Of a DNA stretch of 32,000 bases, positions 2,818-30,720 are shown in pieces. The stretch's first letter is position 1, and each line of letters starts with the position of its first letter. Made by a program: the position numbers and the translations under genes. The DNA lies in contig NC_002939.5 in NCBI RefSeq assembly GCF_000007985.2, forward strand, positions 2,610,001 through 2,642,000, given 5' to 3'. Source of the stretch: Geobacter sulfurreducens PCA (GTDB lineage Bacteria; Desulfobacterota; Desulfuromonadia; Geobacterales; Geobacteraceae). The notes below the pieces were generated by a model. It searched no databases. It was not told the DNA's origin and saw only the letters and a list, made by a program, of their open reading frames with translations.

Positions 2818-2907
2818 GGGAGGCTCCGGAACGGGTCGGCAAGGGAGGTGGAACGAAAAAAGACCCTTTTTAGAATGGGTTAAACTAGCACGGGGAACAA
2901 CGGGGTG

Positions 2908-4752
2908 TCAAGAAACGGCGCAGGTGGAAAAGGCGCCGGGCAAGGTGAAACAGAATGTTGCCCCCTTACCGGGCTCACTCTCGGCCCAGATGCGGCCGCC
3001 ATGACGGAGGACGATCCGGTGGACCGTGGCAAGGCCGACGCCGGTTCCCTCATATTCGGAGGCGGCATGGAGGCGCTCGAACGGCTTGAAGAGCTTGTCG
3101 GCATGGGTCATGTCAAAGCCGGCGCCGTTGTCCGACACATAGAAGACCGGCTCACCCTCCTGGTACCACCGGCCGAAGCGGATAACGGCGCGCTCGACGC
3201 GCGAGGTGTATTTCCAGGCATTCTGCAGGAGATTCTGGAGCAGCAGCGGCAGCAGCGTGTGGTCGCCGGTGGCCGCCAGCCCCTCCTCGATCGTGACATC
3301 GACCCAGCGCCCGGGTTCGGTCTCCCGCAGGGTATCGATGATGTCGCGGGCCAGGCGGCTCAGGTCCGTTACCTCTTCGGTCAGCTCGGTCCGGGAGACC
3401 CGTGACAGGGTCAGCAGGTCGTCGATAATGGAGCCCATCCGGCGCGTGGCGGCCTGGAGCCGCGCCAGGTACTCGCGCCCCTGGTCGTCCAGCAGATAGC
3501 CGTAATCTTCCAGCAGAAAGGTTCCGTAGCTGTTGATATGGCGCAGGGGCGCCCGCAGGTCGTGGGAGACCGAGTAGCAGAACGATTCGAGCTCATGGTT
3601 GGACACGGTGAGCTGGTTGGTACGCTCCTCAACCCTCCGCTCAAGCTCCGTGTTCAGAACCCGGATCGACTCCTCGGCCCGCATCCGCTGGATGGCCAGA
3701 GCGAAGAACTTGGCCACGCGGCCGATGGCTTCCAGGTCGCGCTCGGTGTAGTCCCGGCCGGGATTGGCCAGGGAAATCTGGGCCACCACCTCGTCGCCGA
3801 GCATGACCGGCACCGACAGGAAGTGCCGGAGCGGGATATGCCCGTGCGGTACCCCCACGGCGCTGGGATGGCCGGCGGGATCATTGGTGTAGAAGGGACA
3901 TTTCGTATTGAGCGAGTGGCCCCAGAGGGTCGGATAGGAACCATCCTGGCCGGGCGGAAACAGGATTCTCCGCCCCTCCTCCCCCCCCTGCCAGAGGCAG
4001 TCCATCATAGAGGAAAACGTATGGATCACCAGGGTCCGCGACAGCGGATCGATGGTGGCCACGAAGCCCTGCTCGCTCCCGGTGAGCCCCATTGCCTCTT
4101 CCAGGATGCGGGTGGTGATCTCCTCAATGTCGACATCGGGGGAGATCAAGCAGGGATAGAGTTCCGCCAGTGCCCGATCAACCTCCGCGCGCCAGAGCAA
4201 GTCGTGGGTCCGCGACACCACCTGCCGCTCCAGGTCGCGGTAGAGGACGGCATTGCGGAAGATCAGCGCGAGGACCGTGGCGAGCCGTTCCAGTGATGCC
4301 GTAATGGTCTGGATGCCGGCCCGGTCCATGACGTCGAGCAGCAGAAGCACCCCCACCCGCTGTCTCCCCACGTTGAGGGGAAGGATGAGCGAATCGCCGT
4401 AGCCGAGGGCAGCCAGCACCGCGCCCCCCCGATCCGGCGGGCCCGCCGGCGACCAGAGTTCCGGCCCCTCCATTTCGTGACTCAGGAAAGCCAGCTGTTC
4501 GAGGGACTCCGGCGGGATCTCGCCCCGGCGCCTCTCGGGACAGATGCTCACCAGATCATGCCACCCTTCGGGGGCTTTGGGGACGCACTGCAGGAGCGCC
4601 ACGGTCCGAACCCCGACCAGCTCGCGGATCTGGGCAGTCAGATACGCGCCGCACCGGCCGGGATTCTCCGCCAACTTAAGCACGTTCTCCAGCAATTCCA
4701 GAAAAAGGAAGTGGAACGCGTTCTGATCCCGCTCAACAATCGGCTCCGCCAT
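2908..4752 (-). CDS. sensor histidine kinase with tandem GAF-like N-terminal region, HisKA and HATPase_c
   Basis: 614 aa. H-box FCYSVSHDLRAPLRHINSY, N-box LLQNAWKYT, G-boxes VSDNGAGFDM and GTGVGLATVHRIV. No TM segment is seen, so it is probably cytoplasmic. Its start overlaps the upstream gene's end by 20 nt. Confidence 0.9.
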   Translation of the reverse strand: MAEPIVERDQNAFHFLFLELLENVLKLAENPGRCGAYLTAQIRELVGVRTVALLQCVPKAPEGWHDLVSICPERRRGEIPPESLEQLAFLSHEMEGPELWSPAGPPDRGGAVLAALGYGDSLILPLNVGRQRVGVLLLLDVMDRAGIQTITASLERLATVLALIFRNAVLYRDLERQVVSRTHDLLWRAEVDRALAELYPCLISPDVDIEEITTRILEEAMGLTGSEQGFVATIDPLSRTLVIHTFSSMMDCLWQGGEEGRRILFPPGQDGSYPTLWGHSLNTKCPFYTNDPAGHPSAVGVPHGHIPLRHFLSVPVMLGDEVVAQISLANPGRDYTERDLEAIGRVAKFFALAIQRMRAEESIRVLNTELERRVEERTNQLTVSNHELESFCYSVSHDLRAPLRHINSYGTFLLEDYGYLLDDQGREYLARLQAATRRMGSIIDDLLTLSRVSRTELTEEVTDLSRLARDIIDTLRETEPGRWVDVTIEEGLAATGDHTLLPLLLQNLLQNAWKYTSRVERAVIRFGRWYQEGEPVFYVSDNGAGFDMTHADKLFKPFERLHAASEYEGTGVGLATVHRIVLRHGGRIWAESEPGKGATFCFTLPGAFSTCAVS

Positions 4753-5338
4753 CGCCTGTGCTCTCTTCCACTACCCGGACCAGCGCGGCGGCATCCACCG
4801 CCTCCACCGTCACGGGAAGCCCCAAGAAATGCCCGATTCTCTCCAGCTCCACCAGGGGGACCGCCGTCACCCCGGTATCCAGGTACGTAATACGTGTATG
4901 CATCTCACCCATGAACTGGGCGGCCAGGCGTGAGTCGGCAAAGCCGAGGCGCCGGATAAAGACGTCTTCCCAGCGTGAGGTCCATTCCGGAAGCAAAAAA
5001 AAGACCCCATCGCGCAGCATCCGGTGGTAACGCTCCGGCCCGAGCAGAATTTCACAGCAGTTGACTCCCCTGACGCGCCGGACACCGGGCAGGGAACCAT
5101 GCTCCGACATACGTGCGTGACAGTCGCCAAAGAGGAGCACCACCGGCCCGTCGTCCAGAGAACCGATCAGCCGGGTAATCTCTGCCTCCAGCAGGCTTGG
5201 CGTCATGTGGAGCATCGACTCCAGAAAGCGTACGGGCCAGGGGAAGCGCCCCTGCCGCGCGAGATGCTCGATCTCCGGCCGGAAGATGCCGCAGCTCACC
5301 ACCGTCGCATGCCCTGGCCCCAGCGCGTTATTGTCCAT
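4733..5338 (-). CDS. DUF1638-like protein (family usually encoded next to corrinoid methyltransferase genes)
   Basis: The ORF track gives 4733..5425. I prefer the internal ATG at 5338 (MDNNALGPGHATVVSCGIFRPEIEHL...LLFGDCHA...), which overlaps the upstream stop by 11 nt. The family assignment is from memory of DUF1638 sequence features and its genomic association. Confidence 0.65.
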   Translation of the reverse strand: MDNNALGPGHATVVSCGIFRPEIEHLARQGRFPWPVRFLESMLHMTPSLLEAEITRLIGSLDDGPVVLLFGDCHARMSEHGSLPGVRRVRGVNCCEILLGPERYHRMLRDGVFFLLPEWTSRWEDVFIRRLGFADSRLAAQFMGEMHTRITYLDTGVTAVPLVELERIGHFLGLPVTVEAVDAAALVRVVEESTGDGGADC

Positions 5339-6353
5339 GGCGCTGCCACTGCCGGATGGTATCCGCAACCGCGGAGATGGTTTCCGGCGGGGTATTCCAG
5401 GGCACGTCCGCGGCCGAGGAGGCAAAGATGAAATGGCGGTCGTCCCGGCGGTCGGCCAGGATTTCTGCCGTGACGCGGCAGGCGTCGTCGGGAGTCAGCA
5501 GGCCGAGCAGCGGCCCGTTGAGCTTGCCGAGCAGGACCCGTCCGTCGCCGACCCTGGCACGGGCGTCCTGGAAGCTGTCCCGCGGATCAATGACGAAACC
5601 GGCCACGCCGGGGAGCTCGGCCAGTTCTCCGAGAAAGGGGGCGATCCGGTTGCCGCCGTGATGGAACACCAGGGGACCCGGCACCTGCGCAAAGGCCGCC
5701 GCCAGGGCCGGCACGATCCGCTCGGCCGCAATCCGCGAAGTAACCAGCGCCGTATTGAAGAACATGACCGGCATGGCCACGAAATCGGCGCCGTCGCCCA
5801 GGAGGCGGCTCGCCATGGCCACGAAATGGCGGCCGGTCTTTTCCAGCACCGCTGATGCCAGTTCCGGCTCGAAGAGCAGCGTCTCCAGCCACGCGTCGAT
5901 CCCCATGATGATGGCGGGGAGATCCACGGGCGCGGTGAGGATGCCGGCCAGGGGAACCCGTCCCTTGTACCCGTCCGCCAGGAGCCGGACGCTCTCCCGC
6001 AGGTAGAGGAGGGCCGGGTGCGCGTCAGGGTCGGGATCGGCGAGGCGCATGAAATCGGCGGCATTCTTCACCACCGGCTTGACCACGTTGGGGGGGCCGT
6101 GCCGGTGGTAGACGACGGTGCTGCCGAAGGCCTCGGCCTCGCGGGCAAGGGCAAAGGGAGCAAAGAGGATGTCCGGCCCGAAGAGCTCCGCCACGCGATC
6201 CTGCCCCTCGGCGTAGAGACGCGGCGACGTGTAGTACTGCTCCGGCGACGCGCCGATCAGCCGGGCGCCGTACAGGCTCAGGGTGAGGGTGAACGGCGGA
6301 CGGTCGGTTTCAACACCCCCCATGGCGGCCATGACCCGTTCGAACGATGTCAT
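5328..6353 (-). CDS. uroporphyrinogen decarboxylase (URO-D) family protein, MtaA/CmuA-like methyltransferase fold
   Basis: 341 aa, MTSFERVMAAMGGVETDRPPFTL..., with URO-D family length and pattern. Its ATG forms an ATGA overlap with the corrinoid gene's stop (6350..6353). Confidence 0.8.
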   Translation of the reverse strand: MTSFERVMAAMGGVETDRPPFTLTLSLYGARLIGASPEQYYTSPRLYAEGQDRVAELFGPDILFAPFALAREAEAFGSTVVYHRHGPPNVVKPVVKNAADFMRLADPDPDAHPALLYLRESVRLLADGYKGRVPLAGILTAPVDLPAIIMGIDAWLETLLFEPELASAVLEKTGRHFVAMASRLLGDGADFVAMPVMFFNTALVTSRIAAERIVPALAAAFAQVPGPLVFHHGGNRIAPFLGELAELPGVAGFVIDPRDSFQDARARVGDGRVLLGKLNGPLLGLLTPDDACRVTAEILADRRDDRHFIFASSAADVPWNTPPETISAVADTIRQWQRHGQ

Positions 6354-7030
6354 GCCGCATCACTCCGGTCATGGGCGCGGCGCCACAATTCATCGAACAG
6401 CGTCGGCGCGGCCAGGGCGCTGTCGGCAGTGCCGTCTCCGCCCACTTCAGCCACCAGCTCCGGCCGGAGCTTGAACACGGCGCCCCCCACGGCAAGCTGC
6501 ACACGGCCGGAAAGCCCCAGACGGTCCAGTTCGTCGCGGACCTGGCGGATCGTGCGCGCCGTGACGAGCATCATGGCGGAAACGCCGATGATCCGCGCAT
6601 CGCTCTCCACGGCCCGGGCAATGAACTCGTGGGGGGGAACATCGTTGCCCAAGTCGATCACCTGCCAGCCGGCCGCCCGCAGGAAGGTGACGACCATCTT
6701 CCGCCCCAGTGAATGAAAATCGTCCTCGATGTTGCCGACGACCACGGGTCCCCGGACCGGCGGGCGCCCGCTGCCGTCGGCGGAGGCCAGCGCCTTGGTC
6801 AGCGTATCCTCGGCGATCTTGCCCGCCACGAACCCCTGGGCAAGACTGATCTCGTCCCTTCCCCACCGATCACCGATCTCGCGCAGCACGGGCTCCAGCA
6901 GGTCGCTGAGGGCATTGGTGTAGCCGTGTTCGTCCGCCCACCGGTCGATCAGTGCATTGGCGCCGTCACGGTCGGCGTCGACAATGAGACGCAGCAGCTC
7001 TTCGTGCTCACTGGTCAGGGACTGTTCCAT
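6350..7030 (-). CDS. cobalamin-binding corrinoid protein (B12-binding_2 cap + B12-binding Rossmann domain, MtaC/MtbC-like)
   Basis: Start chosen at ATG 7030 (MEQSLTSEHEELLRLIV), preceded by a GGGGGG SD and 1 nt after the upstream kinase stop. Complete base-off/His-on signature: DFHSLG (DxHxxG), 41 residues, SAM (SxL-like), 28 residues, GG. The 333-aa track ORF extends spuriously into the kinase gene. Confidence 0.87.
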   Translation of the reverse strand: MEQSLTSEHEELLRLIVDADRDGANALIDRWADEHGYTNALSDLLEPVLREIGDRWGRDEISLAQGFVAGKIAEDTLTKALASADGSGRPPVRGPVVVGNIEDDFHSLGRKMVVTFLRAAGWQVIDLGNDVPPHEFIARAVESDARIIGVSAMMLVTARTIRQVRDELDRLGLSGRVQLAVGGAVFKLRPELVAEVGGDGTADSALAAPTLFDELWRRAHDRSDAA

Positions 7031-7031
7031 G

Positions 7032-9299
7032 CTACCCCCCTTCGGGCTGGTCCAGGGTAAAATAGACGGTTGCCCCCTTGCCCACCTCGCCCTCGGCCCA
7101 GACGCGGCCTCCGTGGCGCTGGACGATCCGCATGACCGTGGCGAGCCCGATGCCGGTCCCCTCGAACTCCTCGGTCCGATGGAGCCGCTGGAACGGCCGG
7201 AACAGCTTGTCCACGTAGCGCATGTCGAAACCGGCGCCGTCGTCGCTGACGAAGACGGCCCGGATGCCGTCGACGTCGGCCGTGCCGACCCGGATATGGG
7301 CCTCCTCGTTTTTCGCCGTATACTTCCAGGCATTGTCCACAAGGTTGGCAAGGGCCACGCGCAGAAGCGTCGGGTCCCCCTCCGCCGTGATACCGTCGTC
7401 GATCTCGAAGGAAACCCGCCGCTCCGGCCAGCTCTCCTGGTGCTCCCGCACCAGTTCCCGCGCTATCCGGCTCAGGTTGACCCGCTCCCGCCGCATGACC
7501 TCGCGGGAAACGCGCGACAGCTCCAGCAGGTCGTCGATGAGCTGGCCCATGCGCCGGGCCGCGCTCCTGATCCGCTCCAGATAGCCCTTGCCCGTTTCCG
7601 GGAGGACGTCGCCGCACTCCTCCATCAGCGCCAGGCCGAATCCGTTTATGTGGCGCAGGGGCGCCCGAAGATCGTGGGATACCGAGTAGCTGAACGATTC
7701 CAGCTCACGATTGGCGGCCTCCAGCAGGGCCGTCCGCTCGCGCACCCGCTCCTCAAGCTCTGCGTTGAGCTGGCGAATCCGCTGTTCCGCCTGCTTGCGC
7801 TCGGTGATCTCCCGCAGCACCGCCTGCACGGCCGGTCGGCCCTGATGGGAGTAAGGGATGCCCACCACCTCCACATCAACCACGGTTCCGTCCAGGCGAA
7901 CGATCTGCTGCTCGCACAGCGGCGCCGGACTCCGCTCCTGGTAGAGCAGCTTGATCCGCTCGGCAACCACCTGGCGGCTGTTGGGATGGACGAAATCTGT
8001 AATCTCCCGCCCCAGGAGCTGATCGGCGGTATCGGCACCGTACAGGCGCAGGGCCGCGGGGTTGGCGAATACGTAACGGCCATCACAGTGGATGAGGACG
8101 GCATCGGGAGCGGATTCCACCAGCTGGCGGTAGCGCTCCTCGCTTTCCACCAGCCGGTCCTGGCTCACCTGGTACTCGTCGAGCTGCTGGCGCAACTCCT
8201 CTTCGGTCATGGCCAGCTCTTCGTTGCGCTCCTTCAGCTCGCTTTCCCGCGTCTTGACCGCATCGGCCATGGAGCGGAACCCGTCCCCCAGCTCGTCTAT
8301 TTCGCGGAAGCTGCGGGGCAGAGGCACAACGTCATAGCTGCCGCGGGCGATCTGACGGGCGCTGGCCATAAGCGCCGTGACCGGACGGAAGATCACCGAC
8401 CTCCCCGCCAGGGCCAGCAGCGAAGCCAGCACGATGGTCGCCAGGATGGCAATCCGGAAAATCATCTCGATCTCGTTCACCGGGGCCAGGGCCGTAGCCA
8501 GGGGGACCTCGACGATGACGAGCCACCCCGTCCCCGGAATCTGCACCACGCTGCCGAGGTGGCTCTTGCCGTTCATCACGTAGGTATGGGTGCCGGCCTT
8601 GCCCGCCAGCCCCTCGCGGACGATGTCGAGCCCGCCCAGGTCGGTCTGCCGGCGGACCAGGGAGTAGTCCGGATGACCGATGACCTTGCCGCGACTGCTG
8701 ACGATGATGACCGTTCCCTGGTCGTCGGGCTTCGCATGGGCGGAAATGTCGCTCAACACCCTGAGCCCGAGGGTGCCGACCACGACCCCATCCCCGGCCG
8801 GCGCGGCGAACATGACCGCCGGATCTCCGGAAATAGACGACAGGAATACCTTGGACCGGCTCAACTCCCCCTTGGTGCGCGTTTCCAGGAAAATCGGCAG
8901 CCTGGAGAAATCCATGCCGAGGTAATCGCCGGACGAACCCTTTGCATTGCGCGCAAGTGCAACGTTCACGACCCTGCCGGTGCGGTCGAGCAGGAAAAGC
9001 GATTCGAAGAGACCGGTGGAACTGATCTCTTCCGCAAGTTCGACAGACTGGCTGGCCTGGTCCTTATCATCCTCCAGAACCTTGCCGATGTGCTCGATGA
9101 AGTTGGACGGTTCCCGCAGGCTGCTCTCCACCTCCCGCGCGACCGCCCGCGCCAGGGTGAGGTTGCTTGCCCCCACGTGATGCAGAAGATCGCTGCGCTG
9201 GGCTGATCGCGCGATCAGTCCCACAGTGAGCACCGGCACCACCCCTACTATGAGCAGGGCCGCCAGCAGAGCCGTCTTGAAGCTTATCCGCCGGTTCAC
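7032..9299 (-). CDS. membrane sensor histidine kinase (periplasmic Cache-like domain, TM, HAMP, coiled coil, PAS, HisKA, HATPase_c)
   Basis: 755 aa. N-terminal TM ALLAALLIVGVVPVLTVGLI, second TM IAILATIVLASLLALAG followed by a HAMP-like segment. H-box FSYSVSHDLRAPLRHINGF, G-boxes VSDDGAGFDM and GTGIGLATVMRIV. The GTG start overlaps the upstream stop (GTGA at 9296..9299). Confidence 0.9.
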   Translation of the reverse strand: MNRRISFKTALLAALLIVGVVPVLTVGLIARSAQRSDLLHHVGASNLTLARAVAREVESSLREPSNFIEHIGKVLEDDKDQASQSVELAEEISSTGLFESLFLLDRTGRVVNVALARNAKGSSGDYLGMDFSRLPIFLETRTKGELSRSKVFLSSISGDPAVMFAAPAGDGVVVGTLGLRVLSDISAHAKPDDQGTVIIVSSRGKVIGHPDYSLVRRQTDLGGLDIVREGLAGKAGTHTYVMNGKSHLGSVVQIPGTGWLVIVEVPLATALAPVNEIEMIFRIAILATIVLASLLALAGRSVIFRPVTALMASARQIARGSYDVVPLPRSFREIDELGDGFRSMADAVKTRESELKERNEELAMTEEELRQQLDEYQVSQDRLVESEERYRQLVESAPDAVLIHCDGRYVFANPAALRLYGADTADQLLGREITDFVHPNSRQVVAERIKLLYQERSPAPLCEQQIVRLDGTVVDVEVVGIPYSHQGRPAVQAVLREITERKQAEQRIRQLNAELEERVRERTALLEAANRELESFSYSVSHDLRAPLRHINGFGLALMEECGDVLPETGKGYLERIRSAARRMGQLIDDLLELSRVSREVMRRERVNLSRIARELVREHQESWPERRVSFEIDDGITAEGDPTLLRVALANLVDNAWKYTAKNEEAHIRVGTADVDGIRAVFVSDDGAGFDMRYVDKLFRPFQRLHRTEEFEGTGIGLATVMRIVQRHGGRVWAEGEVGKGATVYFTLDQPEGG

Positions 9300-10444
9300 G
9301 GCACCTCCACCCGCCGGAACGCTCCCTGGCGCACGGTCATCAGGAACGGCTTCCGGTCGGTATCGCCGAAACGATCAATGGTAAACTCGCCCTGAAGACC
9401 GGGAAAGGTTCCGGTGCCGAGGATCGCCCCCTTCAGCCCCCGGGGCGCGGGATTTTTTGCCAGCCCCGCGCCGGTCACCTTGACCGCCTGGTACGCATAG
9501 ACGGCCCCGAAGTCGGGAAGCTGGCCGAAACGTGTCTCGAAGGCCCGGCAGAAGGTCACATAGGGGGTGGAGTCGTCATCGCGGATGAAATTCTGGCAGT
9601 AAACGATCCCCTCCACCGCGGTCCCGCCGTGCATGAGGAGCTCGGGCGTGCTGGACCATTCGGTGGCGAAGAGGGCCGTGGAAGTGTCGAGCTTGCGGAT
9701 CTGCTGGCAGAGCATGGCGGCATCAACGGCACCGGCCAGGATGAGAACCCCCTGCGGCTTCTTTGCCAGGAGCGTTCTGGCCACGGACAGGTAATCGGTC
9801 TGGCCGGACGCATCAAAGGAGACCGCCGGCGCGACGGTGCCGCCCAGCGACTCGAACTGCCGGGTGAACGCCTGCCGCCAGTCGTCGGTGTAGGAGCGGT
9901 TGGAAAGGTCGTACACCACGGCCAGCCGGGACAGCCCCAGGCTCGTGCGGGCATATTCGGCCAGCTGCCGGGTCTTCTGGGCGTTGGTGGGATAAATGCG
10001 GAGGAAGTTGTCGTCTTTGCCGCTGAGATCGCCCGTGCTGACGGTGGGGCTGATCATGACCACCGGCGAACCGTTAATGACGGGCACCGTTGCCATGGCC
10101 ATGGAGCTGGTCATGGGTCCGACGATGGCGGCGACGCCGGCCGCGATCAGCTCGCGCACGGCAGTCTGGGCGCTCCCGGCCTTGCCCTCGTCGTCGCGGA
10201 TCACCAGTTCCAGGCGCTTTCCGTTAATGCCGCCCGCCCGGTTGATCTCCTCCACGGCAAAGATGGTACCGTCGCGGCCGGCAACGCCCAGATCGGAATG
10301 GCGGCCACTGAGGGTGCCCAGATAGCCGATTTTCAAAGAGTCGTCGCGTCGGCATCCCGACATGGTCGAAACCATGACAGCCGCGCAGGCGAGCAACGCA
10401 ACCGGACGCAGGGCGAAAAGCCGCGCGAAGGGCCGGATTACCAT
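9296..10444 (-). CDS. periplasmic substrate-binding lipoprotein, LivJ/Peripla_BP_6-like (ABC-type or sensor-associated)
   Basis: Start chosen at ATG 10444 (MVIRPFARLFALRPVALLACAAVMVSTMSGC, a signal peptide with lipobox). The body (KIGYLGTLSGRHSDLGVAGRDG..AVEEINRAGGINGKRLELV..DD) is typical of branched-chain-amino-acid-type binding proteins. The track ORF extends to 10594. Confidence 0.85.
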   Translation of the reverse strand: MVIRPFARLFALRPVALLACAAVMVSTMSGCRRDDSLKIGYLGTLSGRHSDLGVAGRDGTIFAVEEINRAGGINGKRLELVIRDDEGKAGSAQTAVRELIAAGVAAIVGPMTSSMAMATVPVINGSPVVMISPTVSTGDLSGKDDNFLRIYPTNAQKTRQLAEYARTSLGLSRLAVVYDLSNRSYTDDWRQAFTRQFESLGGTVAPAVSFDASGQTDYLSVARTLLAKKPQGVLILAGAVDAAMLCQQIRKLDTSTALFATEWSSTPELLMHGGTAVEGIVYCQNFIRDDDSTPYVTFCRAFETRFGQLPDFGAVYAYQAVKVTGAGLAKNPAPRGLKGAILGTGTFPGLQGEFTIDRFGDTDRKPFLMTVRQGAFRRVEVP

Positions 10445-12927: not shown

Positions 12928-13149
12928 CTTCCTTCAGACCCCTCCTCGCGGAGGCGCCCTTGCCGTCGGCTAGTACTTTGGTACCCTGTCTCGCGACAGT
13001 GCTGGATTCTACGTACAGGGGACTTGCACCCCATTAGTTCACGCCCATGCCGGGCGTACACCAGCCGGTTGCACACCGTCCGGGGCTGAGAGACGCCCCG
13101 AAGCGGGTGAACCGGGCACCCCGTTATCCAAAGAGAAGGGAGAAAGGTC

Positions 13150-13476
13150 ATGTTGTTTCGTGAAAAAAAGTCGGCGTTAGTTCGTTTATCCGACTGCATC
13201 AAACTCGGTATCGGTAACTGTTTTGATACAACAAATGAAATTATCGCCCTCCACGAACGGTACGAAGCAACTTTTCAAAAAACGAGAGCGATAGCGAAAG
13301 ATATTCTGGAGGACAAAATAGCGGCTGAAGAGGGAGAAAGACAACTACTTGAATTGAATAAGAATGTTCCCGAGGAAGATGCAAGGCGTGGTGTGTATCT
13401 TCAGGGGCGTCTGCATTCTGAGAGCCTCTCCGTTCTCCTAAACTGCTGCTTTGCATTGGAGTCGTACGTAAATTCT
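13150..13476 (+). pseudogene. 5' fragment (109 codons) of HEPN-like gene disrupted by IS insertion
   Basis: The ORF reads ...LLNCCFALESYVNS up to the IS boundary, then runs into IS sequence. The 15-nt tcgtacgtaaattct (SYVNS codons) recurs in frame at 14827..14841 at the start of the 3' fragment. Confidence 0.8.
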
Positions 13477-13511
13477 GTAGCGCGCCCGGTACCCTGGACA
13501 CAAGATAAGAG

Positions 13512-14402
13512 TCACGCAGCCTTCTTGAGTTGATACTCCTCGAAAGCCTGTCGTGGGCTTCTGAACCCGAGCTTTTCAACCAGCCACAGCCGGTTGTAAC
13601 GATCCATGAAGTCAGCTACTGCCATCCTTACTTCTTCGATTGTGCGGTAATGGCGGCCATAGATGACCTGCTCTTTGATAGTCCGATTAAACCGTTCCGT
13701 CACCCCGTTGGTCTGCGGTTCGGCAACAAATGAGAAACTTGGGGCAATTCCCCAGAACTTGATCTGATTCTGGAAATGCTCTGAGAGGTATTGGCTGCCG
13801 TGATCCATCCTCAGTGCCAACCCTCGAGCAGCAGCGGCACCGACCGAGCCGAAACGGGCCTTGATTCCCATGGCGAGCGGCTGCAATGCGGCAAACCGGT
13901 CGCCATTCTTGGTCACATGCCAACCGACGCACTCGGCATTCCAATGCTCGACGGCGGTAAACAACCAGCACCACCCTTCTTCCAGGGTGAAGATCTTGGT
14001 GCCATCGGTACCCCACATGACGTTGGGGGCCGCCGTGATGATCTTGCCGGCGTGGTCCTTGGGCTGTCCCTGAACAACCCGGTGAGGGGAGAGCAGATTG
14101 TTCTCCCGCATGAGACGCAACACTCGTTTGCGGCCGACTTTTATCCCTTTGACGAAGCGTAGTCGTCCCCAGACCTTACGGTGCCCTTCGCCGACAAAGG
14201 GGGATGTCTCCAGGTCGGTCCGGATGAGAGAAAGTACCTCGTCGTCAGAGAGCGGTGTTTTTGGACCACGCTTGAGCAGTACAGCAGGCAATGTTTTTCT
14301 GCCTGCACGGCTATAGAACGACGAGCGGGGCACTCCCCAGGCAAGGCAGACGCGCTGAACGCCATAGGCTTTACCGGTGGCAGGGGAGATCGTAGCACTC
14401 AT
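13512..14402 (-). CDS. IS3-family transposase OrfB (integrase core / rve DDE domain)
   Basis: 296 aa. WGTDGT...(D), MDHGSQYLSEHF (D), GVTERFNRTIKEQ (E): the classic retroviral-integrase-type catalytic core. ATG overlaps the orfA stop (ATGA, 14399..14402). Confidence 0.92.
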   Translation of the reverse strand: MSATISPATGKAYGVQRVCLAWGVPRSSFYSRAGRKTLPAVLLKRGPKTPLSDDEVLSLIRTDLETSPFVGEGHRKVWGRLRFVKGIKVGRKRVLRLMRENNLLSPHRVVQGQPKDHAGKIITAAPNVMWGTDGTKIFTLEEGWCWLFTAVEHWNAECVGWHVTKNGDRFAALQPLAMGIKARFGSVGAAAARGLALRMDHGSQYLSEHFQNQIKFWGIAPSFSFVAEPQTNGVTERFNRTIKEQVIYGRHYRTIEEVRMAVADFMDRYNRLWLVEKLGFRSPRQAFEEYQLKKAA

Positions 14403-14761
14403 TTCTTCGATCTCCTCTGGGCCAAAGGGTGGGCACGCCTCGCTTTCTCCCGCAGTAGCTCGTTTTCCATGGTGATCTCACCGATGCGCTTGAAGGCTGC
14501 ATCGAGTTCCGCTGCCAACGGATCACCTTCACGAGCCTTGAGAGCAGATTCTATCCCCTGGAGTGCTTTCTGATGCCACTCTTCCAGGCGATAGATTTCG
14601 ATGCCCAACTCACGGGACAAGGCATCGATTGGTTCACCGCGCATCAACCGCAGGACAACCTCCTTTTTGCGGTTGGCGCTCCAACGTTTGACTTCCGGTG
14701 CTGCTCCAGTCGAGCTACGCTCTCCTTCCGCCGCACCGGAGACACTGACATCCTTTTCCAT
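14399..14761 (-). CDS. IS3-family transposase OrfA (HTH + leucine-zipper-like helix)
   Basis: 120 aa. RWSANRKKEVVLRLMRGEPIDALSRELGIEIYRLEEW is an HTH_Tnp_1-like motif, and the C-terminal region is coiled-coil. AAGGAGG SD upstream. Confidence 0.88.
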   Translation of the reverse strand: MEKDVSVSGAAEGERSSTGAAPEVKRWSANRKKEVVLRLMRGEPIDALSRELGIEIYRLEEWHQKALQGIESALKAREGDPLAAELDAAFKRIGEITMENELLREKARRAHPLAQRRSKK

Positions 14762-14841
14762 TGACGACCTCCTTGAACACCTAGATTTACCTCATTTTCG
14801 TGTCCAAGAAAACCGGGGCCGCCATATCGTACGTAAATTCT

Positions 14842-15333
14842 TTGGGGTTTCATCTACTGCAAGAAAAGGATTTCCTTGGTCTATTCCACGCAGGGCATGA
14901 ATCAACTACTGAAGTGCTTATTGCTGCCATTGAGAAGATGAGCACTCTCACAAAATGGGAGACACTGGGAAAACTTAAAAAAGGCAAAGGATTTAACAAG
15001 TCAACAAGTCCTTTTCAAGACCTGAAAATTCTTTTCAATTACCGAAATGACATTGCCCATGACAAAGTAGTTGATTACTCAGAAGACAGAGAAAACAAGA
15101 GGTACAACAACAAACTTCCTGACCCCGTAACCGGGTTTCTATCACTGAACCACGTAGTTTTCGCAGCAGATACATACTGGGGAATGATTTCTGAAATCCA
15201 TAGCATACTTGATACTGACATGACTGCATTCCATAAACATTACAACCTTAAACCTTGGTTTAACGACAATTTTGAACAAGAAGCAAGAGGTGCCAGTAAC
15301 GCGTATCTTAAAGTTACTGAGCAGGAAGGATAA
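14842..15333 (+). pseudogene. 3' fragment (163 codons) of the IS-disrupted HEPN-like gene
   Basis: Continues LGFHLLQEKDF... in the same frame as the duplicated SYVNS codons. Contains ILFNYRNDIAHDK (Rx4H, RNxxxH type) at 15043..15060. Deleting the IS plus one repeat copy restores a 272-codon ORF. Confidence 0.8.
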
Positions 15334-15401
15334 CACTTGGCTGGACCAGTCTACGATATTTGGGGTTTCGGTGACTTACTTGTAGAGAAGGAGGGAATGC
15401 T

Positions 15402-15983
15402 ATGCCGTACAGGAAATTATTATTAATAGGGTTATGTCTCGTTTTGCTGTGTGGTTGTAGGCACGGCAGTGCTTCTGTACCTAAAGAGGACAGTAACGAT
15501 TTGGATGTTCACGGAGCAGATGTTAATGGGCTTGATGACCCGCTAGAAAGTAAAGTTGAAATTACAACTGGCAGTAAAGGACTAATGTTCTCTCTTAGGG
15601 GCGGGCAATTTTACCGTGGCTACTTTGACAAAAAATCAAAAATACCTACATACCAACTATACGTTAGATTCCATAGCAATCAATGGATGAATTGGGACAC
15701 TGCGAAGTATCTCACCTTAGACGGATTGAAAGAGTCGCCTGTTATACGAGTCGGGACAGATGTTAAGTGCAGTCAATATAGCTGTGGGCATTATGAAGAC
15801 GTAATTTTAAAACTTGACCGATCAACACTTGATAAATGGAAAACAACAAATACAACTGTTAGGTTTTCTTCTTCTACTGTAACTGGTAGTAGTGATATTG
15901 AACTTGATAGTGAAGACACCACAAATTTCATTAATGCAATGGATGCTGTTGAGGCTTATTATTCTAGATCAATTTCAAAATGA
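15402..15983 (+). CDS. hypothetical lipoprotein
   Basis: 193 aa with a strong AAGGAGG SD. Signal peptide MPYRKLLLIGLCLVLLCGC has a lipobox-like LCGC. AT-rich codon usage matches its island neighbours. No family recognised. Confidence 0.7.
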   Translation: MPYRKLLLIGLCLVLLCGCRHGSASVPKEDSNDLDVHGADVNGLDDPLESKVEITTGSKGLMFSLRGGQFYRGYFDKKSKIPTYQLYVRFHSNQWMNWDTAKYLTLDGLKESPVIRVGTDVKCSQYSCGHYEDVILKLDRSTLDKWKTTNTTVRFSSSTVTGSSDIELDSEDTTNFINAMDAVEAYYSRSISK

Positions 15984-16082
15984 GGTCGCATGCCTAACCC
16001 TTATTAGGCCCCCGTCCGTCAAGGGCAAAAAAGAGCCCTGACGATTTTGAATCGCTTTTTAAATGAATCGGATCAGGACGAG

Positions 16083-16799
16083 AAAAAGGGGACAGGCTAC
16101 TTTTTGAGGGAACAGGATGCCACGGATAGCAAGAGGACATAGTGACGGTCTGATTTACCACGTCCTTAACCGTGGTAACGGCAGACAGAACGTCTTTCAT
16201 AAAGACGGCGATTTCAAGGCCTTCGTTGAACTAATGGCGACAGCACAAGAGACGTATGGTGTTGGCATTCTTGCTTATTGCCTGATGACCAATCATTTTC
16301 ACCTTCTCCTCCAACCGTCAAGGGCAGACGATTTGAGCAAATGGATGCAATGGCTCATGACGAGCCACGTCCGCCGCTACCATCGTCATTACGGCACGAG
16401 TGGTCACGTCTGGCAAGGTCGGTACAAGAGTTTCATAGTTCAGGATGATGATCACTTGCTGACCGTAGTCCGCTATATCGAGGCCAATCCTGTTAGAGCG
16501 ACAATGACCGCCAGCGCCAAGGACTGGCAGTGGTCTTCACACCCAGAACGGGTAGCAGGAACTAATCGAAGAATACTTGCCGCCCTGCCCAACACATTAC
16601 CAGCAAATTGGACACAGTATGTTGATACCGCAATGACCAGCAGCGAAATTGAAAGACTCCGCCGGAGCGTCAACAGACAAGCACCATACGGAAACGATCT
16701 GTGGGCAGATATGATATGTAAGGAGTTGGGATTAGAGTCAACAAGACGGGAAAGAGGCAGACCAAAAATTGATCGAAAAAAGTAGCCTGTCCCCTTTTT
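16083..16799 (+). mobile_element. RAYT unit 1: HUH transposase gene bounded by perfect 18-bp inverted repeats
   Basis: AAAAAGGGGACAGGCTAC at 16083..16100 and its exact reverse complement GTAGCCTGTCCCCTTTTT at 16782..16799 enclose the CDS. Confidence 0.8.
16117..16785 (+). CDS. REP-associated tyrosine transposase (RAYT / IS200-like Y1 HUH transposase, COG1943-type)
   Basis: 222 aa. HUH motif MTNHFHLLLQP, catalytic Tyr helix VVRYIEANPVRA, and WQGRYKS. Confidence 0.88.
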   Translation: MPRIARGHSDGLIYHVLNRGNGRQNVFHKDGDFKAFVELMATAQETYGVGILAYCLMTNHFHLLLQPSRADDLSKWMQWLMTSHVRRYHRHYGTSGHVWQGRYKSFIVQDDDHLLTVVRYIEANPVRATMTASAKDWQWSSHPERVAGTNRRILAALPNTLPANWTQYVDTAMTSSEIERLRRSVNRQAPYGNDLWADMICKELGLESTRRERGRPKIDRKK

Positions 16800-17069
16800 A
16801 TGTCCCATGTAAAGGGCATGACCCAAGACAAATTCGATTCCTTCCTTACGGCAGAGATCGGCAAGCCAGTACCAGGCAAACATGCATTCCACGCCGACCA
16901 CCAAACCATCACGGAAAGGCGCGACTGCTTTGAGAAAGGCCTCCGGCGAACTTGAGATGTTGCGGTGCAGGAGCACCTCGCCCTGTGCATCCAGGATACA
17001 GAGGAACATTTTCTTCGCATGAAGATCGATTCCGCAGTAGTGTTTGTGAGTTTTTGTGTAAAATCTCAT
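16800..17069 (-). pseudogene. N-terminal fragment (~90 codons) of IS110-family (DEDD) transposase, truncated at the RAYT unit
   Basis: From ATG 17069: MRFYTKTHKHYCGIDLHAKKMFLCILDAQGEVLLHRNISSSPEAFLKAVAPFRDGLVVGVECMFAWYWLADLCRKEGIEFVLGHALYM. This is an IS110 N-terminal domain pattern. Homology stops exactly where the RAYT inverted repeat begins, and the track ORF 16473..17114 is a chimera. Confidence 0.75.
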
Positions 17070-17223
17070 GGGTAAGGCCTCCTTTGGAGAATGGGTTCTC
17101 GCAAAGTCCAGCATACGGCAAAAATCCGTATGCCCAAGGGGGGCCTTACATAGTATCCAGCGCCAAGACCGGCCAAGAACCAGCCGGTCAGGCTTATGGC
17201 GTTGGTCGCAATAGGAAAAAGAG

Positions 17224-17964
17224 ATGAAAGTCGATCAAAAAATAATAGACCAAATAGTTGAACTCAAATCGCGCCAGTTGAAGCGAACAGGAAGGGTGGA
17301 TCAAGTACACAAGCGACTAATTCCGGTCTCTGAGGCATATAAACTTCTTGCCAGCAGAGATATCTCCAATCGTCAAGTACGAACAGAGCTGTTGAGATAC
17401 ATTCCGGTCAGCCTTGTCGCCTGTATTGAAGGATATTTTACCCTTGCAATTAAAGACATAGTGGATGGCGGTCCTCCGTTTTCAAATAATGTAAACAAAT
17501 TTAAAGATTTAACTTTTAAGCTGGAATCTGTCCTTGCCCTTCACGAAAAGAACGTGACATTGGGTGATATCGTCGCAGGAATACTGCCGCTCAGCAATCC
17601 GAGTGCAATATATTCATGCATGGAAACCATTTTGGGGGAATCGTTTACCGAAATGGTTAAGCACCATGAATTGAAATGCCCGCATTGTGATGAAAAATCC
17701 CCTCTTCACCTAATGTTTCCGAGTTTTTTCAAGGAAATAGAGCAGATTTACAAAGTAAGGAATATTTTTTGCCATGAAATTGCTCCGTCCGAGAGCGTAT
17801 CAGTAAAACAAATTGGCAAACTATTAAGTAGTGGAACACTTTTCATCTATGTTTCGGAGTCAATTATTACTGACGCGATGTTATTCATGGGGCAGCCAGA
17901 CTTGACGCTGAACAATGTACTGAAGAATGTCAAAAGGAAGACAAGCCTTCCATTCCACAGATAG
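17224..17964 (+). CDS. HEPN-like protein (RNxxxH motif), paralogous in layout to the IS-disrupted gene
   Basis: 246 aa. EIEQIYKVRNIFCHEIAP (Rx4H) at 17758..17775. An earlier helix LVACIEGYFTLAIKD parallels LLNCCFALESYVNSLG of the other copy. AT-rich. The fold assignment rests on the motif only. Confidence 0.55.
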   Translation: MKVDQKIIDQIVELKSRQLKRTGRVDQVHKRLIPVSEAYKLLASRDISNRQVRTELLRYIPVSLVACIEGYFTLAIKDIVDGGPPFSNNVNKFKDLTFKLESVLALHEKNVTLGDIVAGILPLSNPSAIYSCMETILGESFTEMVKHHELKCPHCDEKSPLHLMFPSFFKEIEQIYKVRNIFCHEIAPSESVSVKQIGKLLSSGTLFIYVSESIITDAMLFMGQPDLTLNNVLKNVKRKTSLPFHR

Positions 17965-17993
17965 ACGAGGAAAATTCTATTCCCAACAGCGCC

Positions 17994-18560
17994 GTGGACA
18001 CTGACGCGGCAATAACCCTGCCGCGCAGGTCACGGCGCGACACGTTGGAAGAGAAGAAGGAGAGAAGCGTGACACAATCAGTTGATGTATTAACAGGCAT
18101 TTGCGACAAATACTTCAAGGAACGGCGTAAACATACTTTGGACAGGTGGCTAACTTTCCGAGCGCTAAAGGAACGCTGCCTTTATGATCCGAAGAGAGAG
18201 CTAAAAGTATTCAGAAACATCATGATTGATGGATTCATGCGTGACCATAGCTTTAGGAGTTGGCTTCAGAAGGAGATAGAAAATGGAGTTATCAATAGAG
18301 ATGATTTAATAAACTATGTGGTTTTACTTAAAAATCACAAAAGTCGTGTTTCGTGGAGAAGTGAGTTTATAACTATTTCTGTTGGTATAACTGCCTTGTT
18401 GACAACAGCGGTAAGCTTATTCAATTTACCTCAAATTATTCCTGTTATTATAGCCATTTTTACGTTTTTCGCACTATCTGAAAGAACAATGTTAAATGAC
18501 ACAAAATCTGCCACAGACGAGCTGCTTGCCATTCTTGAATCTGAAGCTTCTGCAAAGTGA
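17994..18560 (+). CDS. hypothetical membrane protein with two C-terminal TM segments
   Basis: Track start is GTG 17994. An in-frame GTG at 18069 preceded by AAGGAG is the more likely start (163 aa). TM region ITISVGITALLTTAVSLFNLPQIIPVIIAIFTFFAL. No family recognised. Confidence 0.6.
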   Translation: MDTDAAITLPRRSRRDTLEEKKERSVTQSVDVLTGICDKYFKERRKHTLDRWLTFRALKERCLYDPKRELKVFRNIMIDGFMRDHSFRSWLQKEIENGVINRDDLINYVVLLKNHKSRVSWRSEFITISVGITALLTTAVSLFNLPQIIPVIIAIFTFFALSERTMLNDTKSATDELLAILESEASAK

Positions 18561-18639
18561 CTGCTTTAACGTTGATACGTCAATCAAACCCATAGAAACA
18601 ACTGATATTAAATAACAATAACCAAAGGAGTATTTCTAC

Positions 18640-19281
18640 ATGAAGCGCACTATCACTTTAATATTATTTTGTATTTTAGCTCAGAATGTAACGATGAACT
18701 ATTGTTTCGCCGATGTTCTTTCCGAAGCATATACATATTTCAAAAACAAAAATTACGATAATGCCTTACCATTACTAGAAAATCTTGTAACAGAAGGAAA
18801 TCTCGACGCTTATAATTTGCTAGGAACAATGTACAAAAAAGGATATTCAGTACCACAAAATCCTAATAAAGCAATTGAGTTATATGAGTTTGCCGCAAAG
18901 AAAGGGCATGCAGGAGCACAATATAACCTAGGACTAATGTATGAATCTGGCTCCGGTATATTGCAGGATTATTCTCAAGCCATAAAATGGTATAAACTCG
19001 CAGCTATTCAAAACGATTCTGGTGCGTTAAACAATTTAGGCCATATTTATCACAATGGATTAGGTGTTAAGAAAAATATGAAAGAGGCATGCAATTATTA
19101 CGGTAAAGCAGCCGCAATGGGTGACGCGTTGGGCAAATGTAATATGGCTGGATGCTATGCTCAAGGCGAAGGTGTAAAGAAAGATTATAAGAAAGCAAAA
19201 GTTCTTGCAAAAGAGGGCTATGAACAAGGTGAAGCGGCTTGTAGTGAGGTCTGGGATATTTTTGAACTAGCAAAACACTAG
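18640..19281 (+). CDS. secreted Sel1-like repeat (SLR/TPR) protein
   Basis: 213 aa. Signal peptide MKRTITLILFCILAQNV.., then four to five SLR units (..AQYNLGLMYESGSGILQDYSQAIKWYKLAA.., ..ALNNLGHIYHNGLGVKKNMKEACNYYGKAA..). AAGGAG SD. Confidence 0.85.
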   Translation: MKRTITLILFCILAQNVTMNYCFADVLSEAYTYFKNKNYDNALPLLENLVTEGNLDAYNLLGTMYKKGYSVPQNPNKAIELYEFAAKKGHAGAQYNLGLMYESGSGILQDYSQAIKWYKLAAIQNDSGALNNLGHIYHNGLGVKKNMKEACNYYGKAAAMGDALGKCNMAGCYAQGEGVKKDYKKAKVLAKEGYEQGEAACSEVWDIFELAKH

Positions 19282-19321
19282 CATTCCAACAAGACACATG
19301 GACGCCGACCGCCCGGCAACA

Positions 19322-20070: not shown

Positions 20071-20133
20071 CGCCCGGAATTCGCAGTTAATTTACGATAG
20101 CGAGAGGACCCCACCTGAAATGGAAGAGGAAAG

Positions 20134-20349
20134 AATTCTGGGGACACCATACTTAATTACCTATTGACAAGCGCATTAACCATCACCAACGTGCCTCCAT
20201 GACCAGAATTGCACGCGTCATAGCAACGGGAATTCCCCATCATGTTACGCAACGGGGCAACCGAAGAATGCCAACATTCTTCAATGATGAGGATTACCGA
20301 GCATATATCGCTCTGCTCGGCGAATGGTGCCGGAAATGTGGCGTAGATA
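20134..20349 (+). pseudogene. truncated tandem duplicate of the RAYT unit 2 left end (REP arm + first 50 codons)
   Basis: 216 bp matching 19322..19537 at a constant offset of 812, with one mismatch seen (atgGcc versus atgAcc). Homology ends abruptly after codon 50 (..RKCGVD), so track ORF 20199..20414 is a fusion artefact. Confidence 0.85.
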
Positions 20350-20410
20350 GCCCCGGCACCCAGGTTACACGTGTTAAAGATTTGAGTCGTTCCCTGAAAG
20401 GTGGCTTGCC

Positions 20411-27800: not shown

Positions 27801-27873
27801 CAGCGTCCACTTCCTCCAGAAACCGTTCGACTTTACTACCCTTTCGCTAAAGCTGCGCGAGGTGCTCGACTGA
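24826..27873 (+). CDS. hybrid sensor histidine kinase: PocR, PAS, GAF (Cys-rich insert), PAS, HisKA, HATPase_c, receiver
   Basis: 1015 aa. PocR-like [14 protein letters not shown]...[31 protein letters not shown]-box [37 protein letters not shown], and receiver [13 protein letters not shown]. In-frame GTG 24859 preceded by GAGGAGG may be the true start. Confidence 0.9.
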
Positions 27874-30640: not shown

Positions 30641-30720
30641 TGGAAGCCTCCTTGGAAGCGGAATCAAATTCGTGTCAATTATATCATCTGCATACGGCAA
30701 GCCGGGGAATGCCTGACAAC

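Follow-up and report, generated by a model that had tools for sequence, protein, structure and literature searches.

A conserved four-gene cassette that may feed the state of a corrinoid protein to a sensor kinase in Geobacter sulfurreducens and other anaerobes

Results

The 32,000-nucleotide (nt) stretch of Geobacter sulfurreducens PCA analyzed here (contig NC_002939.5, positions 2,610,001 to 2,642,000; hereafter the window) carries six consecutive minus-strand genes, in the middle of which a predicted cobalamin-binding (corrinoid) protein, a UroD-superfamily protein, and a DUF1638 protein are encoded between two histidine kinases (HK1 and HK2). The proteins of the locus are AAR35756-35763, GSU2384 being an exact match to AAR35757, and the locus tags agree with published usage for GSU2386 and GSU2387 (PMC7894505) and for GSU2388 (PMC8835794). 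Read in the direction of transcription, the genes encode a LivJ-like periplasmic binding protein of 382 amino acids (aa) (GSU2389, 9296-10444, with its ATG at 10444; Pfam Peripla_BP_6, 1.8e-52); a membrane kinase of 755 aa with a GTG start and dCache_1, HAMP, PAS, HisKA, and HATPase_c domains in Pfam (GSU2388, i.e., HK1, 7032-9299); the corrinoid protein of 226 aa (GSU2387, 6350-7030; Pfam B12-binding_2 and B12-binding); a MtaA-like TIM-barrel protein of 341 aa belonging to the UroD superfamily (GSU2386, 5328-6353; Pfam URO-D, PF01208, 1.1e-60); the DUF1638 protein of 201 aa (GSU2385, 4733-5338; Pfam PF07796, 1.2e-26); and a cytoplasmic sensor histidine kinase of 614 aa composed of an N-terminal domain (NTD) of GAF type, GAF_2, HisKA, and HATPase_c (GSU2384, i.e., HK2, 2908-4752).

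All five junctions are tight. The binding-protein and HK1 genes share a GTGA (9299-9296), and the TAG of HK1 (7034-7032) is separated by a single C (7031) from the ATG of the corrinoid gene (7030-7028), leaving a gap of 1 nt. The corrinoid and URO-D genes share an ATGA (6353-6350), while the URO-D/DUF1638 and DUF1638/HK2 pairs overlap by 11 nt (5328-5338) and 20 nt (4733-4752), respectively. An earlier interpretation made from the letters of this DNA (the sequence-only reading) had named the same six genes and domains, and open reading frame (ORF) models and Pfam agree with it. It had also placed the GTGA, the ATGA, and the two longer overlaps correctly; the TAGCATG junction is likewise real, but it spans 7034-7028 and not 7030..7034. 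A terminator scan found no terminator-like site on the minus strand inside the cluster. Since an Rfam search of the window returned 0 matches, there is no cobalamin riboswitch in it.

We examined how far this arrangement extends by locating relatives through the DUF1638 protein. A word-index search gave 384 relatives, and an alignment scan of one genome per species across 185,579 species gave 163, of which the best 80 were taken with 10-kb flanks; because the genome scan was pattern-based, these counts are lower bounds. The 80 genome loci, G. metallireducens, and a metagenomic relative belong to the locus set (L001-L084), which consists mostly of contigs from metagenome-assembled genomes (MAGs). 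At every locus where the contig was long enough, genes for a corrinoid protein, a URO-D protein, a DUF1638 protein, and a GSU2384-like sensor stood in this order on one strand. The sequence-only reading had made its proposal depend on whether the synteny extends beyond this strain, and the order is indeed kept across many phyla. It had, however, treated six genes as the unit: four of them are conserved, whereas the binding protein and the upstream kinase are not part of the conserved unit.

The cassette hosts are all anaerobes and span about 10 phyla. They include Bacteroidota; Desulfobacterota, among them Desulfovibrionaceae, Desulfobacteraceae, Desulfuromonadales, and Malonomonas; Acidobacteriota (Holophagaceae, Geothrix), Planctomycetota, Spirochaetota, Chloroflexota, Nitrospirota, Ignavibacteriae, and Clostridia; and one short contig binned as Methanospirillum. 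Taxa named in the record titles of L005-L084 include Geobacter, Prolixibacteraceae and other Bacteroidales, Anaerolineae, and Phycisphaerae. This distribution resembles what we take to be the patchy spread of hgcAB, the genes of corrinoid-dependent mercury methylation, and it may simply mirror where corrinoid-rich anaerobes are found.

Tight packing, and with it translational coupling, is also a property of the cassette at large. Across about 90 related loci, the median junction was -4 nt from corrinoid to URO-D gene and -13 nt from URO-D to DUF1638 gene, and the DUF1638 stop lay a median of 24 nt ahead of the codon for kinase NTD residue 12, so that kinase start codons usually overlap the DUF1638 gene. 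The packing is thus not a chance feature of the G. sulfurreducens strain. Little else travels with the four genes. When ORFs from 82 loci were clustered, the next clusters after the four genes and their antisense shadows occurred in 22 loci or fewer, and those scanned were of the Holophagaceae type (Geothrix and relatives), encoding an aldehyde dehydrogenase, a major facilitator superfamily transporter, MscS, and an HgmA-like protein, all unrelated to the cassette. No second methyltransferase (MT2), RamA-type activase, or response regulator was conserved within +/-10 kb across the 80 loci, and the same neighborhood clustering showed no conserved linked genes for B12 transport or biosynthesis. 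Nor did the searchable full-text literature, from which subscription-only work is excluded, contain any description of the cassette or of its GAF subfamily, in line with the earlier statement that no characterized system of this architecture was known to its author.

Two loci deserve separate mention. In G. metallireducens GS-15 (L001, 5918-13078), the cassette is flanked on one side by the E1-beta/E2 genes of a 2-oxoacid dehydrogenase complex and on the other by a gene for an LplA-like lipoate ligase, with the E1-alpha gene farther upstream past unrelated small genes, a layout absent from the other loci. A Desulfuromonadaceae MAG (L072, 12676-18503, minus strand) carries, beside a canonical cassette, a second and much more divergent corrinoid/URO-D/DUF1638 trio. 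The next genes encode a PAS histidine kinase and a REC-HK-REC hybrid, and the N terminus of the PAS kinase is faintly similar to the cassette GAF (hhalign probability 25%). The pairing of this divergent trio with a PAS kinase suggests that the arrangement is probably older and broader than the models used here capture.

The two genes upstream of the cassette in G. sulfurreducens behave differently. In G. metallireducens, the corrinoid, URO-D, DUF1638, and GAF kinase genes overlap as they do here, without a binding protein and without a Cache kinase. A kinase of some sort preceded the cassette at only about 10 of 77 loci, and a binding protein accompanied it only in a 78%-identical metagenomic relative (L004), in which the Cache kinase HK1, and hence all six genes, are present. 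The binding protein and the Cache kinase are therefore lineage-specific additions in G. sulfurreducens and its close relatives. The binding protein is a probable partner of HK1, whose Cache pocket has been predicted to be amino-acid- or dicarboxylate-like (PMC8835794), and the two additions probably bring in a periplasmic cue.

HK1 and HK2 each have HisKA with a phospho-acceptor His and HATPase_c. Their H-boxes, FSYSVSHDLRAPLRHIN in HK1 and FCYSVSHDLRAPLRHIN in HK2, are nearly identical, as had been pointed out, and their transmitter modules share 57% identity over 250 residues. This degree of identity suggests a shared, unlinked response regulator, on which extracellular and intracellular cues would probably converge. 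No stand-alone receiver is encoded in the window and none is conserved across the loci; the 32 kb contain a single receiver domain, the C terminus of an unrelated hybrid kinase at 24826-27873 (plus strand; 1015 aa, PocR-PAS-GAF-PAS-HisKA-HATPase_c-REC). PocR is also the sensor domain of the MecA kinase in the dichloromethane corrinoid methyltransferase cassette (PMC9768040).

We then considered the four cassette proteins in turn. GSU2387 combines a four-helix cap (PF02607, 1e-09) with a Rossmann B12-binding domain of the His-on type (PF02310, 6.5e-23). The complete DxHxxG-41-SxM-28-GG signature noted earlier can be read in it as D104-x-H106-x-x-G109, 41 residues, S151-x-M153, 28 residues, and G182-G183, and these residues are at least 95% conserved in 78 orthologues. 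GSU2387 is thus predicted to be a base-off/His-on cobalamin-binding protein. Its nearest solved structures are corrinoid proteins of methyltransferases (MttC 7XCN, 5.6e-18, followed by 1Y80, 4JGI, MtaC, and MtmC), which score 69 bits compared to about 46 bits for CarH. Among NCBIfam models, the best is TIGR02370 (pyl_corrinoid) with 92.8 bits against a cut-off of 215.3, while MtbC, MtgC, and MtaC all fall far below their cut-offs; the CarH model gives 59.5 bits against a cut-off of 400, and the protein has no helix-turn-helix domain. Since all NCBIfam scores lie far below cut-off, GSU2387 belongs to a distinct subfamily. Neither GSU2386 nor GSU2387 was detected in G. sulfurreducens proteomes (PMC7894505), which fits low-abundance signaling proteins.

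GSU2386 is related to MtaA but lacks its zinc site. The MtaA/CmuA model of NCBIfam (TIGR01463) scores 72.8 bits against a cut-off of 235.4, and a profile of the URO-D family finds MtaA (4AY7, 6.8e-19) ahead of the best HemE (6.9e-11). A true uroporphyrinogen decarboxylase was ruled out: at the position of the HemE catalytic Asp, the URO-D subfamily has an invariant Pro, as does MtaA, to which the protein is closer. The zinc ligands of MtaA in 4AY7 are, as we understand that structure, the His of H-I-C-G and the Cys of G-C-G, the zinc presumably activating the thiol acceptor. Throughout the URO-D subfamily these motifs align to H-H-G-G and n-a-D. Both zinc cysteines are therefore absent, and a thiol methyltransferase of the coenzyme M type was rejected as well. 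Orthologues nonetheless share many invariant residues over the full length of the MtaA-like barrel, and we regard GSU2386 as a putative corrinoid-protein methyltransferase without the MtaA zinc site.

The sequence-only reading had built on missing parts. The scanned window ORFs of 150 aa or more included neither an MttB/MtaB-type nor a RamA-type gene, and no stand-alone receiver is encoded in the window, in agreement with its statements that a RamA-like activase and a response regulator are missing there. Its further argument, that no substrate-specific methyltransferase (MT1) is present, is weak, since the UroD superfamily itself includes the MT1s CdmB, MtvB, OdmB, VdmB, MtoB, and MecC/E (PMC13222342); what distinguishes the conserved unit is instead that it has no MT2 and no activase. 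CdmB and a Moorella enzyme are, moreover, zinc-free UroD-family MT1s (PMC13222342), and absence of the zinc site is therefore no argument against activity of GSU2386.

GSU2385 matches PF07796 with 93.9 bits (gathering score 27). In DUF1638, C16, C73, and C94 are invariant and C95 is nearly so; H44 and a PEW...W...F motif are also conserved. An AlphaFold2 model of alpha/beta fold (predicted local distance difference test [pLDDT] 92.7; predicted template modeling score 0.87) places C16, C73, and C94/C95 at the C-terminal ends of beta1, beta3, and beta4 in a Rossmann-like lobe. In Rossmann-like sheets, cofactors usually sit at this edge; the location suggests a site for a metal or an Fe-S cluster, and DUF1638 probably carries such a site on its three invariant cysteines. 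DUF1638 has no sequence relative in the PDB, and Foldseek returned nothing at E<=1e-3, the best weak match being a LacI/PBP-like alpha/beta protein (probability 0.75, template modeling [TM] score 0.41).

DUF1638 is also found fused to its neighbors on either side. In-frame DUF1638::NTD fusions through a linker of 20-30 residues occur at four loci from different lineages (L023, Phycisphaerales; L029, Desulfobacteraceae; L062; L079) and in 5 of 75 database representatives. URO-D and DUF1638 form one in-frame ORF with a short charged linker in the isolate Malonomonas rubra DSM 5091 (L073, 5663-7354, plus strand). Such fusions are a classical sign that the proteins, where encoded separately, work in physical partnership. 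Here they mark DUF1638 as the member next to the kinase GAF domain, and it is likely, judging from these ORFs, that DUF1638 serves as the link or adaptor from the corrinoid protein to this domain. Elsewhere, DUF1638 accompanies corrinoid enzymes. In Phaeobacter inhibens, its gene lies directly downstream of that for a stand-alone B12-binding protein, and a split methionine synthase depends on it and on a RamA-like protein (PMC5764234); in Ruegeria, the DUF1638 protein rises with corrinoid-dependent demethylation of glycine betaine (PMC12478193).

The kinase GSU2384 is built from three parts, all on the minus strand: the NTD (residues 12-190, 4183..4719), which ends in a signaling helix of the pattern LE..V..RT.EL; a second GAF domain (Pfam GAF_2, residues 208-355, 3688..4131); and the HisKA plus HATPase_c transmitter (residues 390-605, 2938..3585), which holds the H-box. 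We used an alignment of 51 complete downstream proteins to define the NTD and to count architectures. The sole region common to all 51 is GSU2384 residues 12-190 (about 175 residues), upstream of GAF_2. Thus, the GAF domain that the sequence-only reading had seen, at 208-355, is not the conserved one; the conserved one is a GAF without Pfam annotation at 12-190. The middle domain varies (PAS in 39, GAF in 9), as do the outputs: HisKA with HATPase_c in 46 proteins, REC in 34, which makes them hybrid kinases, GGDEF in 1, and HisKA_2/HWE in 1.

Pfam GAF, GAF_2, and GAF_3 do not match the window NTD even at E<1, while 19 of the 51 orthologues match GAF at this level, the best at 2e-07. The AlphaFold2 model of the NTD (pLDDT 87.5) is a GAF fold followed by a long helix, and a Foldseek search of the PDB gave 206 matches at E<=1e-3, GAF domains having a probability of 1.0; the top matches were phytochrome and other GAF domains (TMq 0.5-0.6), those of phytochromes ranking first (E ~3e-6, TM 0.53-0.62). 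By this predicted structure, the NTD is a GAF-fold domain. In GSU2384 numbering, P72, P125, and L126 are invariant and R43, G47, R74, G134, L163, N167, R181, and T182 near-invariant, with E175 near-invariant in two alignments (A2, A8). Methylation of the kinase on a conserved NTD cysteine was ruled out, as the domain has no such residue.

A word-index search with the NTD alone gave 1500 candidates and 0 significant matches, probably a limit of the word index. In contrast, an index-free phmmer search of 1.84 billion cluster representatives found 512 NTD proteins, 334 of them at E<=1e-10, in which the NTD starts almost always at residue 10-20. For 75 of the top 150 matches we tallied the outputs, finding HATPase_c in 56, HisKA in 44, HisKA_2 in 13, HWE in 11, REC in 25, and GGDEF in 1. 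Going by these architectures, a location at the extreme N terminus ahead of varied outputs is the behavior of a sensory input domain.

The NTD is nevertheless tied to one genomic setting. A hidden Markov model of the domain matched exactly one ORF per locus (84 loci plus the window), always the next after DUF1638 or fused to it. Conversely, when metagenome loci were found through the NTD, 18 of 18 had DUF1638 directly upstream, together with URO-D and corrinoid genes where the contig was long enough. Because this reverse scan was seeded with the Bacteroidales version of the NTD and is taxonomically narrow, we added look-ups for four NTD proteins from the unbiased search (P0196, P0239, P0272, P0319; one of them a HisKA_2 kinase), all four of which had the trio directly upstream. 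Wherever its context was checked, then, the NTD is confined to the cassette (18/18 metagenome loci and 4/4 database look-ups).

Outside the cluster, trpE/trpG lie downstream and htpG, which is divergent, lies upstream. By eye, a TTGACA-17 nt-TAGTTT site (2875-2910, minus strand), unscored by the scan used for terminators, overlaps the GSU2384 stop within the 90 nt that separate GSU2384 from trpE. It may serve trpE/trpG as a promoter of their own, in which case the kinase cluster would not have to share one transcript with the trp genes. Farther away, positions 13000-20500 form a low-GC island (GC 0.38-0.54, compared to ~0.65 in the upstream flank and ~0.51-0.61 downstream) with an rve-type integrase gene (13512-14402, minus), IS200/Y1-transposase-like genes (16117-16785 and 19387-20049), a RiboL-PSP HEPN protein (17224-17964), a Sel1-repeat protein (18640-19281), and several ORFs without a Pfam match. 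This is probably a mobile or defense island. A plasmid-origin search gave no match. At 21016-22305 (plus strand), a toxin kinase of HipA type (HipA_C plus Couple_hipA) is encoded ahead of an acetoacetate decarboxylase family protein (23501-24334). At 28720-31006 (minus strand), an NTP_transf_8 nucleotidyltransferase gene (28720-29721) adjoins that of a long pentapeptide-repeat protein (29876-31006).

Discussion

We favor the view, to which we give a probability of about 55%, that GSU2387-2386-2385-2384 is one copy of a widespread four-gene signaling cassette in which the state of the trio is fed to the kinase. The sequence-only reading had proposed a cobalamin-based sensory module rather than a catabolic pathway, and the comparative data, namely, the synteny, the exclusivity of the GAF domain, the varied outputs, the fusions, and the lack of an MT2, activase, or regulator nearby, make this the best reading, with function still a matter of inference. 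In the scheme we envisage, the URO-D protein would dock on the corrinoid protein as MtaA-type barrels do and set the state of the corrinoid. Most likely it would methylate Co(I) from a methyl donor, perhaps reversibly, and as the unit encodes no onward methyltransferase, the methylated fraction of the corrinoid protein would mirror the donor concentration. DUF1638, as a factor that in general would act on stand-alone corrinoid proteins, would here recognize the state of the corrinoid protein and bind the NTD GAF, from which the conserved helix (LE..V..RT.EL) would relay the signal to the kinase or, rarely, to a GGDEF output. The cassette would thereby report, in anaerobes, either methyl-donor availability or the Co(I)/Co(II)/CH3-Co(III) redox-methylation balance, a methyl-donor signal being more likely than a pure redox signal. 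We propose more tentatively, and at somewhat less than even odds, that this represents a new class of two-component input, in which a dedicated UroD-type enzyme methylates or demethylates (or oxidizes) protein-bound cobalamin, DUF1638 reads its state, and the GAF domain receives it, so that a methyl donor is sensed through one-carbon chemistry and not through ligand binding.

Several points weigh against this view. GSU2386 has no recognizable catalytic residues of any characterized relative and might only bind, and the NTD alignments contain no conserved Cys or His that would hint at direct cofactor chemistry. Most of the fused ORFs come from MAGs or metagenomes, in which assembly errors are possible, yet they recur independently. 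The survey covered loci +/-10 kb, and an MT2 or activase may be encoded elsewhere in each genome. Kinase genes can also sit in catabolic corrinoid cassettes as mere regulators, as in mec (PMC9768040) and with MsmS/RdmS by mts (PMC11784639). Finally, it is from sequence, synteny, and structure prediction that we infer binding of cobalamin, transfer of methyl groups, contacts among the proteins, and control of the kinase.

The same evidence has to be set against other explanations. The cassette could be a metabolic system in which the URO-D protein, as MT1, and the corrinoid protein demethylate a substrate, DUF1638 performs maintenance, the MT2 is encoded elsewhere, and the kinase GAF senses the substrate and controls expression only. 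To our knowledge, Geobacter, Geothrix, and Bacteroidales are not methylotrophs, which speaks against such a role in these hosts. In mec, a histidine kinase gene and a receiver gene do lie among those for the corrinoid protein and the UroD-type methyltransferases (PMC9768040), Methanosarcina has the methyltransferase-associated kinases MsmS/RdmS (PMC11784639), GAF folds such as that of the NTD commonly bind small molecules, and the split MetH of Phaeobacter, for which DUF1638 is needed, is a metabolic corrinoid enzyme (PMC5764234). However, no MT2, activase, or response regulator is conserved near the 80 loci, the NTD is restricted to the cassette, unlike general substrate sensors such as PocR, the DUF1638::NTD fusions point to coupling at the protein level and not only through transcription, and GSU2386/2387 went undetected in the proteomes (PMC7894505); we therefore consider a metabolic role unlikely, albeit one to be taken seriously. 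Less likely again is a sensor of redox state, oxidants, or B12 status, in which the kinase would read Co(I) versus Co(II) or cobalamin loading, with DUF1638 as an Fe-S or metal redox partner and the URO-D protein docking or capping. This explanation shares most features with the one we favor and differs in the signal. It draws on the three invariant DUF1638 cysteines after beta1, beta3, and beta4 of the Rossmann-like lobe, on the grouping of DUF1638 with RamA in reductive cobalamin reactivation (PMC5764234, PMC12478193), on the anaerobic lifestyle of all hosts, and on a URO-D protein without known catalytic sites. Without a substrate, however, it is hard to see why the MtaA-like barrel should be conserved over its full length and keep many invariant residues, neither a riboswitch nor linked B12 transport or biosynthesis genes were found, and the cluster that DUF1638 would bind is read from its sequence.

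A renewable B12 photoreceptor, in which light would cleave the Co-C bond as in CarH/AerR, the URO-D and DUF1638 proteins would re-methylate and re-reduce the cofactor, and the kinase would report light, appears improbable. GSU2387 has the cap-plus-Rossmann architecture of CarH, and the best structural matches of the NTD are phytochrome GAF domains; nevertheless, the corrinoid protein is closer to those of methyltransferases by both measures (69 vs. 46 bits in the PDB and 92.8 vs. 59.5 bits in NCBIfam), phytochrome matches at a TM of only 0.5-0.6 are generic for GAF folds, and the hosts are anaerobes of the subsurface, sediment, or gut type. We give still less weight to the suggestion (PMC7894505) that GSU2386/2387 act as a Wood-Ljungdahl-like corrinoid/methyltransferase pair with the monofunctional carbon monoxide dehydrogenase (CODH) of G. 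sulfurreducens, an organism without an annotated corrinoid iron-sulfur protein (CoFeSP) or its methyltransferase (MeTr). GSU2387 is a small His-on MtaC-type protein and not a CoFeSP, the URO-D protein is not a pterin-binding MeTr, the proteins were undetected under autotrophy-like conditions (PMC7894505), and across the 80 loci the cassette is always found with a kinase and never with genes for CODH/acetyl-CoA synthase. If the synteny result stands, such a role is effectively refuted, and the published guess is thereby corrected. An Ada-like model, with the methyl group going to a Zn-bound DUF1638 cysteine itself, is speculation only and a poor fit with the catalytic-cycle role of DUF1638 in split MetH.

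If a methyl-donor signal is confirmed, the sensed compounds could be donors such as methyl halides, methoxylated aromatics, or methylated sulfur or nitrogen compounds, in about 10 phyla, and the mechanism would constitute a signal input of a new category. Corrinoid methyl-transfer chemistry, otherwise a catabolic or biosynthetic device, would then for the first time be seen to act as a two-component input in the dark; the B12-based regulators known to us are light sensors or riboswitches. For DUF1638, which is genetically required for split methionine synthase and induced with glycine-betaine demethylation without a known mechanism, the cassette offers a concrete hypothesis and, if true, a first mechanistic role as reader of the state of a corrinoid protein. 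The NTD is a previously unrecognized GAF subfamily of about 500 clusters at 50% identity, and since its genomic partners are fixed, its ligand or partner is directly testable. G. sulfurreducens PCA, which carries one copy of the cassette, is a genetically tractable model organism.

As proposed, the cassette would combine two known kinds of system, accessory-protein-dependent two-component sensing and B12-based regulation. MsmS and RdmS of Methanosarcina acetivorans are kinases with haem attached covalently to a GAF cysteine; they are not known to have an H-box, and they probably control expression of mts. The cassette NTD, in contrast, has no conserved Cys or His, the cassette kinases have normal H-boxes, and the cassette, which is bacterial and spread over many phyla, adds DUF1638, sometimes fused to the GAF domain. 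What the two have in common is a cytoplasmic GAF kinase encoded beside UroD-type and corrinoid genes, in Methanosarcina mtsD/F/H (PMC11784639). The mec cassette, which serves to catabolize dichloromethane anaerobically (MecA PocR-kinase, MecB corrinoid protein, MecC/E/I MT1s, MecD receiver, MecF MT2), likewise has an interleaved kinase gene (PMC9768040), but it includes a response regulator, an MT2, several MT1s, and the widespread PocR sensor, and has neither DUF1638 nor a dedicated GAF domain.

Three-component methyltransferase systems (MtaBCA, MttBC-MtbA, OdmABCD/MtvABC, CdmBCA) also place a small, capped His-on corrinoid protein beside a UroD TIM barrel, and in CdmBCA and Mtv the UroD members are zinc-free MT1s (PMC13222342). 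The cassette differs in having no MT2 or activase within the unit, in the obligatory DUF1638 and kinase that stand in their place, and in proteins that score far below the NCBIfam equivalog cut-offs and have no MtaA zinc ligands. With CarH/LitR and AerR/PpaA it shares the use of a cap-plus-Rossmann B12 module for what would be regulation, and GSU2387 matches the structures of CarH and AerR. In those light-sensing systems the B12 module is fused to a transcription factor or binds it directly, whereas GSU2387 stands alone, is nearer to methyltransferase corrinoid proteins, comes with a UroD-type protein and DUF1638, and is linked to a kinase. The split methionine synthase of Phaeobacter inhibens likewise has DUF1638 encoded downstream of a stand-alone cap-plus-B12 protein and requires it for function (PMC5764234). 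There, however, the partners are the homocysteine- and pterin-binding domains of MetH and the output is methionine, whereas in the cassette the partner is a UroD-type protein and a sensor kinase follows downstream.

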